A stretch of 59,311 nucleotides of DNA from an uncultured Methanosarcinales archaeon (lineage in GTDB: Archaea > Nanobdellota > Nanobdellia > Woesearchaeales > JAGWAF01): positions 1 to 59,311 of the forward strand of contig CAZQZJ010000003.1 in assembly GCA_964597775.1 (NCBI GenBank), given 5' to 3'. Positions 23,726 through 29,206 of the stretch are shown here, piece after piece. Numbering within the stretch: the first letter of the stretch is position 1; each line of letters opens with the position of its first letter. The position numbers and the translations under genes are program-made. Below the pieces are notes generated by a model. That model searched no databases. It worked only from the letters and a program-made list of their open reading frames with translations, and had not been told where the DNA came from.

Positions 23726-24493
23726 ATGAATTACCTAAGAGTTATCAGCCCTGGATTTGACACAGGAGCCAGACACATGGCATGGGACGAAGCCATACTT
23801 AACCATGTGAACACAAACCAAAGCCCACCAACACTTCGACTCTACTACTTCAACCCACCAGCAGTCACACTATCATCAGAATGCCACCTAGATATTATCA
23901 ATAAAACTACCTGCACACAACAACAAATTGATATTATCCGCAGACCAACTGGAGGATCAGCACTTTTTCACAACAGAAAAGATCTTGCTTATTCATTTAT
24001 CGCACCAATCTATTTATTTGAAGAACAAAAACCAGTAAAGATAATGCGCAATATCTGTAACCAAATTGCTAGTGCATTTACTACAATTGGAATCCCTGCA
24101 TATCTTAACCAAAAAAGCAATACCAATATCCTTATCGACGGGAAAAAAATAAGTGGAAGCGCAAGCATGATCAAAACCAACGCCATACTTGTCCACGGAA
24201 GCATCTTTCACAATATTGACACAATACTCATCAGTTCACTAATTAACATCCCACAACAAGATCTTGAAAACAGAATGATTGGAATTTCCACATACACCAA
24301 CAACCATGCTGAAATCCATAATGCCATTATCAACGCACTCTCATACAAACTTGAAATCAGAATTAATGAAACAGCAACTGAATCTGAACATCATGACATG
24401 CACAGAATACTCCAAGACAAATTCAGCACTACATCAGAATGGCTCACAGCAGGAAAGAAACACAAAAAATACTGTGGATCAAGCATCGAATGA
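23726..24493 (+). CDS. Lipoate-protein ligase A / LipM-like octanoyltransferase
   Basis: HMAWDEAIL, TLRLY, RRPTGGSALFH, GKKISGSA and VHGSI; adjacent to the dehydrogenase operon. Confidence 0.9.
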   Translation: MNYLRVISPGFDTGARHMAWDEAILNHVNTNQSPPTLRLYYFNPPAVTLSSECHLDIINKTTCTQQQIDIIRRPTGGSALFHNRKDLAYSFIAPIYLFEEQKPVKIMRNICNQIASAFTTIGIPAYLNQKSNTNILIDGKKISGSASMIKTNAILVHGSIFHNIDTILISSLINIPQQDLENRMIGISTYTNNHAEIHNAIINALSYKLEIRINETATESEHHDMHRILQDKFSTTSEWLTAGKKHKKYCGSSIE

Positions 24494-24549: not shown

Positions 24550-25923
24550 CTAATCACGTTCAATTAACAACAAATCAGGATCCTCAAGATGCTCCTTTAC
24601 CACATTCATAAAACGCGCAGCCTGTGCACCATCAAGAATCCTATGATCAAATGTTAGTGACAAGGGAAGTACCAACCTAGACATTATCTGATGCTCAACT
24701 ATCCTTGGCAACTCCTGCATTCTTCCCACACCAAGAATTGCAGCCTCAGGAAAATTTACAATTGGAGTAAAATGCGTGCCTCCAATTGAACCAATATTTG
24801 TAATTGTAAAAACACCACCTTTTAGATCAGCAGGATCAAGCTTACGATCTTGCGCCTTTTTCACCAAATCTTGTAATTCTTTAGCAATCTCAAGCACAGA
24901 TTTTGCATCAACAGACTTAATCACTGGAACTAACAAACCATCATCTATATCAACAGCCACACCAATATTGAAATATTTCTTAACAACAACCTCTTCTTGC
25001 ACATCATCAAGCGAAGATGCCAGAATTGGAAACTGCCTTATCCCAGCAACAACAGCCTTAATAATAAACGGCATCAAAGTCAACTTTACTCCTTTTTTAT
25101 CAGCAACAAGCTTCTGCTTTTGACGAATCTCCCACAGATGCGTCACATCAACATCATCCATATGAGTCACTGGAACAACAGATGCAAGAGCTTGAACCAT
25201 ATGCTTTGCAGTTACCTTTCTAATACCAAGTAATTGAATATGATCAATATACCCATACAAATCATACTTACGCACCAATTTTGGAGATGGACTACTATCA
25301 ACTGGAGATAATGAACTATCAGAAACAGATTTAAAACCTGATTTTAGAGCTACAAGAACATCATCCTGAGTAACAACAGCACCTACACCTGAAGGTTTAA
25401 TATTCTTAATATCAACTCCAAGTGACAAAGCTAATTTCCTTACTGCAGGAAGAGCAAGAGGTGAACTTTGCATACCTATTTTCTGATCTGAAGAATTTGA
25501 AACAGAGGCATTTCCTGTTATCAAACCTTTAGTCAAATCACCATTATCCTCAGAAGCTTCTTCTAATTCACCTACAACACCTGACCAGTGTTTTATCTGC
25601 TGCATATCCTTATTCTTAGAAACCACCTGCTGCTTAGACATTAACTCTACCATCCGTCCTCCAGATATTGCAGTAGCAACTACCTCATCATCACTACCAA
25701 TTACCACAAGCACATCACCAACCCTGATTTTCTCACCCTCATTACCAAATCTATTGAGAATCCTACCTTTTTTTGGAGAAGGAATCTCAACAATAGCCTT
25801 ATCAGTCTCAACCTCAAGAAGAACTTGATCTGCATCAACCATATCACCTTGCTTCACATGCCACTTCACAATCTCACCCTCTACAATACCCTCACCAACA
25901 TCAGGAAAACGAAACTCTATCAC
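24550..25923 (-). CDS. pdhC: 2-oxoacid dehydrogenase E2 (dihydrolipoamide acyltransferase)
   Basis: One lipoyl domain (EVETDKA), PSBD (ALPAVRKLA...G...DDV) and catalytic DHRILDG. Substrate specificity not resolved. Confidence 0.93.
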   Translation of the reverse strand: MIEFRFPDVGEGIVEGEIVKWHVKQGDMVDADQVLLEVETDKAIVEIPSPKKGRILNRFGNEGEKIRVGDVLVVIGSDDEVVATAISGGRMVELMSKQQVVSKNKDMQQIKHWSGVVGELEEASEDNGDLTKGLITGNASVSNSSDQKIGMQSSPLALPAVRKLALSLGVDIKNIKPSGVGAVVTQDDVLVALKSGFKSVSDSSLSPVDSSPSPKLVRKYDLYGYIDHIQLLGIRKVTAKHMVQALASVVPVTHMDDVDVTHLWEIRQKQKLVADKKGVKLTLMPFIIKAVVAGIRQFPILASSLDDVQEEVVVKKYFNIGVAVDIDDGLLVPVIKSVDAKSVLEIAKELQDLVKKAQDRKLDPADLKGGVFTITNIGSIGGTHFTPIVNFPEAAILGVGRMQELPRIVEHQIMSRLVLPLSLTFDHRILDGAQAARFMNVVKEHLEDPDLLLIERD

Positions 25924-26894
25924 TGCACCATCACCTGCTTTATCGCACGAACAATCCGAAACATATCAGGAATATAATACTGCTCTAAACGCGCCAAAGG
26001 CATAACTGTATCAAAACCAGTAACACGAACTGGAGATGCCTGCAATGAATACAAACAATGCTCAACAACAACAGCCAAAAGCTCTGCAGCAAACCCACAC
26101 AACCTTGGAGCTTCATTCACAATCACAACCCTACCAGTTTTTTGCACAGATGAGATAATAGCACCCTTATCCAATGGAGAAAGCGTCTGCAGATCAATAA
26201 CCTCAACTGAATACCTATTTGAAACCTCTTGCGCAGCTTCTATACAAGTTCTCATCATCGCACCATAAGAAATCAATGTAAGATCAGAACCCTCCTTAAC
26301 CACACGTGCCTTACCTAATGGAATCACATACTCCTCCTCAGAAACCTCCTCTTTAATTGCACGATACACACGTTTAGGCTCTAAAAATAGCACAGGATCA
26401 GGATCACGAATCGCAGCAACCATCAAACCCTTAGCAGCAAAAGGAGTACTTGGAGTCACTACTTTTAACCCAGGGATATGTGCATAAAAGGCTTCAACAG
26501 ATTCAGAATGATGCTCTAATGCACGAATCCCACCAGTATACGGCGAACGAATCACCATCTGCGCATGAAACCTACCACGAGAACGATTCCTAATCCGCGC
26601 CACATTATTAATAATCTGATCAAAAGCAGGAGCAAGAAAACCCTCAAACTGAATCTCACACACAGGCTTAAGACCAAAACAAGACATACCAAAACACGAA
26701 CCAACAATACCAGACTCAGCAAGAGGCGTATCAAACACACGCTTTTCCCCAAATAAATCCAACAAACCCTGAGTCACACGAAACACACCACCATTTTTTG
26801 CAACATCCTCACCACACACAATAACAGCAGAATCTTTTAACATCTCCTGACGAAGCGCAAGATTAATTGCCTCCACCATATTCAAGCGAGGCAT
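25920..26894 (-). CDS. pdhB: 2-oxoacid dehydrogenase E1 beta
   Basis: GEDVAKNGGVFRVT, DTPLAESG, EHHSES, DPDPVLFLEPK and KTGRVVIV. Confidence 0.95.
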   Translation of the reverse strand: MPRLNMVEAINLALRQEMLKDSAVIVCGEDVAKNGGVFRVTQGLLDLFGEKRVFDTPLAESGIVGSCFGMSCFGLKPVCEIQFEGFLAPAFDQIINNVARIRNRSRGRFHAQMVIRSPYTGGIRALEHHSESVEAFYAHIPGLKVVTPSTPFAAKGLMVAAIRDPDPVLFLEPKRVYRAIKEEVSEEEYVIPLGKARVVKEGSDLTLISYGAMMRTCIEAAQEVSNRYSVEVIDLQTLSPLDKGAIISSVQKTGRVVIVNEAPRLCGFAAELLAVVVEHCLYSLQASPVRVTGFDTVMPLARLEQYYIPDMFRIVRAIKQVMVQ

Positions 26895-28018
26895 TACTTA
26901 CCACCTTCTTTTTTTTCATGCAGAATCTTTATGAGCTCCTGCTTTTGCTCAACCAAATCAGGAGTAGGATACTCATACATCCAATCAAAAAAATCAGTAG
27001 GATCAGGCACTGGAATCTTTTCAAATATCTGTACTTCATCTTCAACTTCCTTTGTCAAAGAAACCACCAGTTCCTTATCCTTTTGCTCTGACCACATCTT
27101 TTTCTGTATCAAAAATTTCTTCAAACGAAGAATTGGATCCTTTAACCTCCACTGCTCAACCTCTTTAGGATCACGATACCTTGATGCATCATCAGCAGTT
27201 GTATGATCTGAAAAACGATATGTTAAACACTCAATAACACTTGGCCCTTTTCCATTCCTTGCTTTTATCAATGCATCACCAACTACCTTAATCACAGCAA
27301 GCACATCCATTCCATCAACCTGAACACCACTAATACCTGCAGCAAACGCCTTCTGAGCAAGAGTCTGCGCCATACTCTGACACGAACAAGGAAACCTACC
27401 TTTACATATAGCACATGAACGAGAAACTGAGATTGCCCACTGATTATTCTCAATAACAAAAACCACTGGAGCCACAAATACACCTGCAAAATTCATTGCT
27501 TCACTTACATCACCAACAGAGGTTGCACCATCACCAAGAAACACTAACGAAGCCCAAGACTCACCCTTCAAACTCGCAGCCATTGCAGCACCAACTGCAT
27601 GCAAGGCCTGCGAACCAACACAGATCTGAATTGGAAACAGATTCACAGCCTTAGGCAGATTCATACTCCTCTCATCACCAGCACTATACTGATACAACTG
27701 ATGCAAAGGAGCACCTCTTGCAATAAACGCACCCCAATCACGATACAAAGGAAAAATCCAATCATCCTTACCCACTGCATACGCAGCACCAACCTGAGTC
27801 GCTTCCTGACCTTGACAAGAAGCAAGGGTTCCTACACGACCCTGACGCTGCAACAACAACCCCTTACTATCAAATAGTCTTGTACGCAACATTAACCTAT
27901 AAACCCCTAGCAACTCCTTATTTGATATATCAGGAAGAAACTTAGCATCTACTTTACCATTTTCATCAAGAACCTGAACATATTCAATTTTATACCTTGC
28001 CACTACCTTCTTAGACAT
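26894..28018 (-). CDS. pdhA: 2-oxoacid dehydrogenase E1 alpha with a Cys4 insertion
   Basis: RQGR...GQEA, TPP motif GDGATS...ENNQWAIS and YRFSDHTTADDASRYR; ATG at 28018 (MSKKVV). Confidence 0.95.
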   Translation of the reverse strand: MSKKVVARYKIEYVQVLDENGKVDAKFLPDISNKELLGVYRLMLRTRLFDSKGLLLQRQGRVGTLASCQGQEATQVGAAYAVGKDDWIFPLYRDWGAFIARGAPLHQLYQYSAGDERSMNLPKAVNLFPIQICVGSQALHAVGAAMAASLKGESWASLVFLGDGATSVGDVSEAMNFAGVFVAPVVFVIENNQWAISVSRSCAICKGRFPCSCQSMAQTLAQKAFAAGISGVQVDGMDVLAVIKVVGDALIKARNGKGPSVIECLTYRFSDHTTADDASRYRDPKEVEQWRLKDPILRLKKFLIQKKMWSEQKDKELVVSLTKEVEDEVQIFEKIPVPDPTDFFDWMYEYPTPDLVEQKQELIKILHEKKEGGK

Positions 28019-28955
28019 GATGCATATCCCCCAAAAACAACTCTGCAGCACGATAACTTGAACGCACCAGAGGACCAGCAGCCACATATCTAAAACCACA
28101 AGAGAGTGCCTCTTGCTTTAACACATCAAAATCCTGAGGCGAGACAAACTCCACAACAGGAATATGCCTAGGTGATGGCTGAAGATACTGACCAAAGGTC
28201 ACAACCTCAACACCAACTGCACGCAAATCAACACATGCAACAAGAACCTCACCTCTTGATTCACCAAGACCAAGCATCAAGGAAGACTTTGTAATAATAG
28301 AAGAATCCTTCTGCTTTACAAAATGTAGTACCTCAAGTGATTGTTCATACCCAGCACGAGGATCCCGCACCTTTCTTTGCAAGGACTGCACAGTCTCGAG
28401 ATTATGCGCAATCACATCAGGTTTGGCATCAATAATGATCTGCAAGAGTTCACGATTACCACAAAAATCAGGGATAAGAACCTCAATCTTAATAGTTGGA
28501 CACTGCTGCCTCACCTCCTTAATGCATGCTGCAATATGATATGCTCCTTGATCCTTAAGATCATCACGATCAACACTTGTAATCACAACATAAGACAAAC
28601 CAAGTTGTGCAATTGCAGATCCAATCCTTTGTGGCTCATGCGGATCAAGAGGTTTTGCAGGAAAACCAGTCTTGACATGACAGAATTTACACGCCCTTGT
28701 ACAGGTATCACCCATTACCATCACTGTCACAGTACCACCAGACCAACACTCACTAATATTCGGACACCTAGCTTCTTCACAAACAGTCACTAGATTTAAT
28801 GATCTTAACAATGATTTGATCTCTACATACTTTTTACCTGGAGGACGAATCTTAAACCAGGCAGGTAAGCTATGCTTAACTAACAACCTACTTTTTTCAT
28901 CAATACCTGACACTACCTGCAATACATTATTTGCACTCATCATCCTGTAGCCCAT
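28011..28955 (-). CDS. lipA: Lipoyl synthase
   Basis: CEEARCPNISEC auxiliary cluster, CTRACKFC radical SAM motif, HNLETV, GQYLQP and RSSY. Confidence 0.96.
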   Translation of the reverse strand: MGYRMMSANNVLQVVSGIDEKSRLLVKHSLPAWFKIRPPGKKYVEIKSLLRSLNLVTVCEEARCPNISECWSGGTVTVMVMGDTCTRACKFCHVKTGFPAKPLDPHEPQRIGSAIAQLGLSYVVITSVDRDDLKDQGAYHIAACIKEVRQQCPTIKIEVLIPDFCGNRELLQIIIDAKPDVIAHNLETVQSLQRKVRDPRAGYEQSLEVLHFVKQKDSSIITKSSLMLGLGESRGEVLVACVDLRAVGVEVVTFGQYLQPSPRHIPVVEFVSPQDFDVLKQEALSCGFRYVAAGPLVRSSYRAAELFLGDMHHV

Positions 28956-29206
28956 TTCTTAAGAACATCAATATTCACAGCACCACAAATCCACTTCCCA
29001 GTCTTTGTATTAAAAAAAAACGGAACACCACCACAAAAACCCTTATCATAACCAGCCAAAAGCTTTGCATTCTTCTCATCATGCCACACCTCCAAACGAT
29101 CCACATTTACCCCCAACTCCTTCTCTAATTGATCAACTAAAGGATCCATCTCATGACAGTGAGTACATTCCCTTCCAGTAAACATGATAAGATAGGACTG
29201 TGCCAT
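28940..29206 (-). CDS. Thioredoxin-like protein
   Basis: CTHC active site and GGVP cis-Pro motif; first gene of the lipA-E1-E2 operon. Confidence 0.85.
   Translation of the reverse strand: MAQSYLIMFTGRECTHCHEMDPLVDQLEKELGVNVDRLEVWHDEKNAKLLAGYDKGFCGGVPFFFNTKTGKWICGAVNIDVLKKWATG

Follow-up and report, generated by a model that had tools for sequence, protein, structure and literature searches.

Among solved structures, the closest relative of the protein described here is the alpha subunit of the pyruvate dehydrogenase (PDH) E1 component, E1p, of Geobacillus stearothermophilus (1w85, 3duf and 3dva). Its inner active-site loop, comprising residues 203-212, contacts the diphosphate of thiamine diphosphate (ThDP) and coordinates Mg2+; it becomes ordered upon activation of the cofactor and, together with the outer loop, helps to engage the lipoyl domain (PMC2663715, Pei et al.). 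Phosphorylation loop B of human PDH E1-alpha (195-205), which likewise follows the NN motif and coordinates the ThDP-bound Mg2+ directly, is a proven regulatory site, with site 3 at Ser203 (PMC6168537). As judged by the shared NN motif, the two loops are likely to be equivalent. Here we analyse a stretch of archaeal DNA of 59,311 nucleotides (contig CAZQZJ010000003.1, hereafter the window), in which the E1-alpha of a PDH-type operon carries an 11-residue insertion with four cysteines in its inner loop. The enzyme belongs to a known family; the four-cysteine loop insertion, as well as a subfamily of E1-alphas with an 8-residue insertion at the same site, is new here. We know of no prokaryotic E1 with a built-in cysteine or metal element in the inner loop.

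Cysteine-bearing catalytic segments are familiar from enzymes of other families. The regulatory loop of chloroplast fructose-1,6-bisphosphatase and the insert of the ATP synthase gamma subunit are lineage-specific, thioredoxin-regulated elements that render the activity redox-dependent, and the lid of Gram-positive adenylate kinases holds a structural Zn(Cys)4 site in a mobile catalytic segment, a site that is absent from working orthologues. The insertion in the window differs from the chloroplast elements in belonging to an unrelated enzyme family and in that no co-variation with a thioredoxin gene was found, and it differs from the adenylate kinase lid, again that of an unrelated enzyme, in that the two CxxC pairs stand far apart there and in that the metal site considered here is putative. 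The window E1-alpha has the fold of the G. stearothermophilus enzyme, along with its GDG...NN motif and the His of its outer loop, and the two systems also share their partners, namely E1-beta and an E2 with a peripheral-subunit-binding domain. The window protein departs from it by the 11 additional inner-loop residues with their four Cys, and by Cys133 in place of a near-invariant Pro. Human loop B differs in being controlled by a kinase and a phosphatase acting on Ser, with neither an insertion nor a cysteine cluster.

The four-cysteine insertion in the inner active-site loop

The insertion is carried by the peptide ENNQWAISVSRSCAICKGRFPCSCQSMAQTLAQKA of E1-alpha, encoded on the minus strand, in which the cysteines are spaced as C202-x2-C205-x5-C211-x-C213. 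Alignment by HMMER with 1w85, whose numbering matches that of PMC2663715 (Q200, N202 and I206), opens one gap of 11 residues between T208 and P209, the sole gap in the core. Since the inner loop spans residues 203-212, the insertion therefore falls in the middle of that loop, which it lengthens from 10 to 21 residues. Depending on how the sequences are aligned, the insertion comprises S201-C211 or C202-S212; C202 lies one residue past the conserved Arg200, and C213 immediately precedes the invariant Gln214. The original prediction, made from the letters of the window, had proposed a four-cysteine insertion at this place, and the indel is confirmed by the alignment of homologues. The excess length that it reported is real, with a size of 11 rather than about 12 residues by HMMER against 1w85, and its placement directly after the thiamine-binding motif is close, the first Cys following N192 by 10 residues. 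It had put the cysteines beside the active-site loop, and the insertion indeed lies within the inner loop.

The cysteine content of the insertion is non-random and far above composition. Cys accounts for 1.33% of the proteome, and only 10 of the 860 long open reading frames (ORFs) contain at least four Cys within 12 residues, several of these showing ferredoxin-type or other Cys-rich motifs. At this frequency, the binomial expectation for such a density is ~1.5e-5 per 12-residue segment by our own arithmetic, and we estimate ~5e-4 for four Cys in 12 residues encoded by random DNA of 38% G+C. The pattern C..C-x(3-8)-C.C is matched by no second ORF among the 860, and a peptide search of the own genome gave no related Cys module.

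At the nucleotide level, a Ser-Cys codon pair stands at either end of the insertion (TCA TGT ... TCG TGT; a 5-of-6 direct repeat, 27380-27418), a repeat that could be the mark of a microhomology-mediated insertion. In addition, blastn-short reported an 18-nt exact match, AAGGTAGGTTTCCTTGTT, between positions 27389-27406 of the window and positions 9091-9108 of contig C7 in the source genome G000 (E ~0.001). The copy on C7 belongs to a frame for an unrelated membrane protein that is coded on the opposite strand, and its flanks are unrelated too; we take the match to be chance, or possibly the trace of a templated insertion. Derivation of the insertion from a genome repeat or a miniature inverted-repeat transposable element was considered and rejected, as the 18-nt match with its unrelated flanks was all that blastn-short returned.

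The remainder of the protein (P0001) is that of an ordinary family member. It matches Pfam E1_dh (PF00676) with 7e-79 and 265 bits (cut-off 22), NCBIfam TIGR03181 with 427.7 bits (cut-off 411.35), and 1w85, its best solved relative, with 1.4e-78. These matches point to a heterotetrameric PDH-type enzyme, for which pyruvate, rather than a branched-chain 2-oxoacid or acetoin, is the putative substrate, the nearest solved relative being a PDH E1p. The AlphaFold2 model has a mean predicted local distance difference test score (pLDDT) of 91 and matches the fold of 1w85 with a template modelling (TM) score of 0.85. The closest named homologues come from Woese-, Parv-, Nano- and Aenigmarchaeota, which marks the source, a groundwater organism, as an archaeon of the DPANN type, and, a second record of the same protein (P0002) aside, the best among the 120 best homologues from 5.8 billion proteins is only 54% identical. 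The ThDP/Mg2+ motif is canonical, and the outer-loop His272, the residue of reductive acylation, is present; the columns of both are invariant or nearly so in the alignment. Decay of the gene is ruled out, because its deviations from the consensus, 5 in 101 near-invariant columns, fall within the range of the homologues (median 3, maximum 12).

Occurrence of the insertion and a two-cysteine subfamily at the same site

When the 120 best homologues are aligned with MAFFT, 118 are insert-less, one is the same protein and one, P0061, has an 8-residue insertion at the same site as the window E1-alpha. The same-protein record, P0002, differs by the substitution G38E and is encoded on a separate 6.4-kb contig, with the insertion present. 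With this record from another contig, a one-off assembly error is rejected. A double frameshift or mis-translation was rejected as well: the other frames are without a canonical loop, and the flanks align cleanly. The insertion is likewise missing from five E1-alphas encoded in other genomes of the order, of which two belong to the same family as the source. A word search with residues 190-232 against the 5.8 billion proteins returned only the protein's own cluster. In the JGI metagenomes, a degenerate back-translated pattern for the exact peptide had 0 matches, and a pattern for any insertion of 9-13 residues gave spurious matches only. The four-cysteine insertion is real and, among the homologues, relatives and metagenomes scanned, species-specific.

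The 8-residue insertion is far more widely distributed. A scan of one genome per prokaryote species (GTDB) for W-A-I-S ... T-x-A-Q-K-A with a spacer longer than normal yielded 13 archaeal species genomes with an E1-alpha of this kind, the insertion being at the site of that in the window (loci L023, L024, L028, L030, L032, L034, L039, L043, L052, L055, L057, L070 and L073). A protein search restricted to the loop gave 28 cluster representatives at 90% identity (P0061 and P0122-P0148), a set that partly overlaps with the 13 genomes. The inserted segment reads AISVPR-[VTA]-C-x4-W-G-[GC]-C-Q (PR-x-C-x4-WG-x-C-Q), in which both Cys and the W-G are kept in every copy read and the four residues between them vary. 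Across the 13 genomes, TGT and TGC are both used for each Cys (7/6 and 6/7). Such mixed codons at invariant Cys are the signature of purifying selection as read from these sequences, which argues that cysteine chemistry in this loop has been selected in at least one lineage.

The clade with the 8-residue insertion is monophyletic with full support, and in the alignment its pair of Cys falls on C202 and C213 of the window protein. In both lineages, the first Cys stands one residue past the conserved Arg, and the last just before the invariant Gln. The elements between these brackets are different, with 8 inserted residues, two Cys and an invariant W-G in the subfamily, as compared with 11 residues, four Cys arranged as C-x10-C at the outer positions, and no W-G in the window. 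The subfamily also carries substitutions of its own (GDG to GDA, GQEA to GEEA by Q71E, Q75H, Y111H and D115S) at active-site positions that are otherwise nearly invariant and at which the window protein is canonical. By its sequence, the subfamily appears to represent a separate E1 with a divergent function.

A correlated swap accompanies the insertion in the two lineages, each of which loses the Cys of the 'CQNN' segment and gains a Cys in a strand that corresponds to residues 141-143 of G. stearothermophilus. The 8-residue clade has Ile at the 'CQNN' position in 13 of 13 cases, as does the window protein (Ile189), and its invariant extra Cys falls at position 131, two residues before Cys133 of the window.

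The 13 genomes are labelled as Woesearchaeota, as Nanoarchaeota/Nanoarchaeia or as "uncultured archaeon", and some are metagenome-assembled genomes (MAGs) labelled "Methanosarcinales". The five loci from the latter (L024, L028, L032, L043 and L057) group tightly with Woese- and Nanoarchaeota sequences, and their labels may reflect mis-binning or gene transfer.

To what extent the two insertions share an origin was addressed with trees built without the insert columns throughout. In a quick 84-row tree, the window protein is unresolved, on a long branch. Forcing its union with the 8-residue clade improved this under-searched tree by 26.5 log-likelihood units, with a p-value in the approximately unbiased test (p-AU) of 0.80; on a careful 54-row tree, the forced union was worse by 9.9 log-likelihood units (p-AU 0.33). 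A common origin of the two Cys-bracketed insertions is neither supported nor rejected by these sequence comparisons. Two separate origins would mean that the bracket positions, identical in both lineages, and the loss of Cys189 from both are convergent.

Possible roles of the loop cysteines

The reading that we favour, tentatively and at slightly less than an even chance, is that the cysteines staple the loop extension through a metal or through disulfides. Because only two residues part the positions of Arg200 and Gln214 in ordinary E1-alphas, the insertion must exit and re-enter the loop at nearly the same point. A Cys at each of these points, i.e. the outer pair C202/C213, would clamp the base of the extension via a shared metal or a disulfide, closing it so that the loop ends keep their native path and the Mg2+-binding geometry is preserved. 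The inner pair C205/C211, each Cys a few residues inward of an outer one, would complete a CxxC...CxC tetrad that could ligate a single metal ion, Zn2+ or some other, or else pair up in two disulfides. The five-residue tip KGRFP, basic and aromatic in character, would project at the active-site mouth, which is the docking place of the lipoyl domain. Such an extension would probably stiffen or pre-order the loop and alter that mouth, with redox or metal sensitivity as a possible by-product. Whereas the insertion, its site and its cysteine content are shown by the sequences, the stapling is inferred, and so are the metal or disulfide bonds behind it and any effect on activity. The interpretation given in the original prediction is supported in part. 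Overall, the chemistry of the loop cysteines is plausibly functional in the window enzyme and, to judge by conservation, clearly selected in the parallel clade.

Several observations weigh against a staple. The AlphaFold2 model gives low confidence for the loop in both lineages, with pLDDT values of 51-72 for the loop of the window protein and of 58-60 in a member of the 8-residue subfamily. The second pair of the window motif is CxC rather than the usual CxxC, which is unusual for a zinc knuckle, and stable cytoplasmic disulfides are unexpected in most mesophilic archaea. The four-cysteine form is known from a single species-level lineage, the 8-residue clade keeping the outer Cys pair only. 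As for the parallel with that clade, the closest partner of the window protein in the careful tree is P0015, a sequence without the insertion (98/82), and the window protein has only 3 of the 34 residues that are diagnostic of the clade; the parallel may be convergence, or partly an effect of aligning Cys with Cys.

The cysteines might also be functionless, in which case a recent 33-nt insertion into a length-tolerant surface loop was tolerated as a neutral expansion. We regard this as unlikely, although it carries appreciable weight, given that the insertion is a singleton at the species level, that the PDH operon is patchy within the order with no E1-alpha found in two genomes of the same genus, that the flanking Ser-Cys codon pairs are suggestive of a microhomology-type event, and that the protein occupies a long branch (0.66-0.69). 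The loop is, moreover, flexible in solved E1 structures (PMC2663715). Yet 11 random residues in a Mg2+-binding loop should be costly, and the remaining protein is under normal constraint; four Cys in 12 residues are very improbable from the proteome composition, and the bracketing Cys coincide with the selected Cys pair of the 8-residue clade. That the insertion is an artefact of assembly or sequencing is scarcely credible: the source is a MAG in 79 contigs, which would make such an error conceivable, but the record on the 6.4-kb contig has the insertion with one residue different elsewhere, and the inserted segment is in frame, stop-free and cleanly flanked. An iron-sulfur site near ThDP, providing a route of electron transfer loosely like that of pyruvate:ferredoxin oxidoreductase, seems very improbable to us. 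Four Cys as close together as these can serve as cluster ligands, as in SoxR with CX2CXCX5C, the insertion is near the cofactor loop, and the further unique Cys133 belongs to a strand lining the cofactor. The window motif, however, is CX2CX5CXC, the reverse of the SoxR-type order and unlike that of any cluster motif known to us. Moreover, the retention of E2, LipA and LplA together with a candidate E3 points to the usual lipoyl route, and the operon contains no ferredoxin partner.

A thiol/disulfide redox switch of the kind put forward in the original prediction, in which oxidation would lock or distort the inner loop and stop decarboxylation until a thioredoxin-fold protein re-reduces the cysteines, is in our view improbable. 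Its appeal is that it resembles the thioredoxin-regulated chloroplast enzymes with Cys-bearing inserts, that a CTHC thioredoxin-fold gene is the first of the operon, and that both lineages with an insertion lack the nearby Cys189, as would fit an avoidance of stray thiols. The cysteines are located in a lineage-specific insert, and the loop is a place of regulation in mammals, whose loop B carries phosphorylation site 3 (PMC6168537). The four-Cys spacing, on the other hand, fits a metal site too, and the link to the thioredoxin-like gene, which the original prediction had drawn, fails because the gene is present without the insertion in two genomes and is not found beside lipA at two loci with the 8-residue insertion. 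The gene is conserved in at least two other genomes of the order: in G036, a homologue of the CTHC protein with 61% identity is encoded directly upstream of lipA-E1a-E1b-E2 (L012, 9389-9637), and in G035 one with 46% identity lies ~1.2 kb upstream of lipA (L015, 13325-13579); the E1-alphas of both are without the insertion. At L034 and L043, where the sequence passes lipA, no thioredoxin-like gene was found beside it. The gene would be more economically tied to LipA or to lipoyl-thiol chemistry than to E1. Thioredoxin action on the thiols of 2-oxoacid dehydrogenases has been discussed (PMC11021975). The designation of the operon as headed by a thioredoxin holds for the position of the gene, and loosely for its identity: the protein scores 20.5 bits against Pfam Thioredoxin, below the cut-off of 23.5, and falls below the threshold of the MJ0307-type thioredoxin family as well.

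Returning to the stapled extension, a broader proposal would be that a metal- or redox-sensitive cysteine clamp arose on one or two occasions among DPANN archaea in the Mg2+/ThDP loop of E1-alpha, the loop that is under phosphorylation control in animals, so as to gate pyruvate oxidation by redox state or metal supply, with the window protein as its most elaborate form. We offer this as a conjecture with a rather small chance of being right. Should the bracketing cysteines act as a clamp or switch, they would offer a new and simple means of controlling a 2-oxoacid dehydrogenase, and a handle on an oxygen-era complex in genome-reduced DPANN archaea of low-oxygen groundwater. The conserved 8-residue subfamily, with at least 28 protein clusters, gives the cysteine-loop hypothesis a testable and replicated basis and would be the better experimental entry, to which the four-cysteine form adds a natural variant for comparison. 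Even a merely tolerated expansion would map the extra length that a catalytic loop can take.

Operon and genome setting

The genes for the CTHC protein, LipA, E1-alpha, E1-beta and E2 form a tight cluster on the minus strand of the window (Table 1). The source assembly is a MAG of 1.19 Mb with a completeness of 100%. No match to E1-alpha was obtained in two genomes of the same genus (G001 and G002, 87-88% complete), and the PDH operon appears to be patchy, even within the genus.

Table 1. Positions in the window of the E1-alpha operon, its neighbour and the E1-alpha segments discussed in the text
Feature	Positions	Strand	Remarks
Lipoate-protein ligase (LplA/LipM-like)	23726..24493	plus	convergent with the operon
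E2 acyltransferase	24550..25923	minus	lipoyl, E3-binding and catalytic domains; DHRILDG present
E1-beta	25920..26894	minus	
E1-alpha (PDH-type, P0001)	26897..28018	minus	374 aa; begins with ATG at 28018, in overlap with the end of lipA; stop 26894-26896
Four-Cys motif C202-A-I-C205-K-G-R-F-P-C211-S-C213 (CAICKGRFPCSC)	27380..27415	minus	all Cys encoded by TGT
ThDP/Mg motif GDG-x(26)-NN (G162-D-G ... N191-N192)	27443..27535	minus	canonical
Ile189	27452..27454	minus	Cys ('CQNN') in 63 of 70 (90%) insert-less homologues
Cys133	27620..27622	minus	in place of a Pro that 94% of homologues conserve; the strand matches I142-I144 of G. stearothermophilus in the alignment
Lipoyl synthase LipA (lipA)	28011..28955	minus	
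Thioredoxin-fold-like protein, CTHC motif	28940..29206	minus	88 aa; first gene of the cluster; overlaps the start of lipA

In E2, the Lys motif of the lipoyl domain and the catalytic DHRxxDG are both in place. A 488-aa frame on contig C7, with a Pyr_redox_dim match of 120.7 bits (G000:C7:12464-12769, locus L017), is likely to be the dihydrolipoamide dehydrogenase (E3), encoded apart from the E1/E2 operon. Apart from the insertion, the enzyme and its operon look intact, canonical and lipoyl-dependent. At one locus of the 8-residue subfamily (L024, 1933-2550), E1-beta matches residues 1-114 and 264-322 only, which points to a deletion within the gene or to a gap in the assembly.

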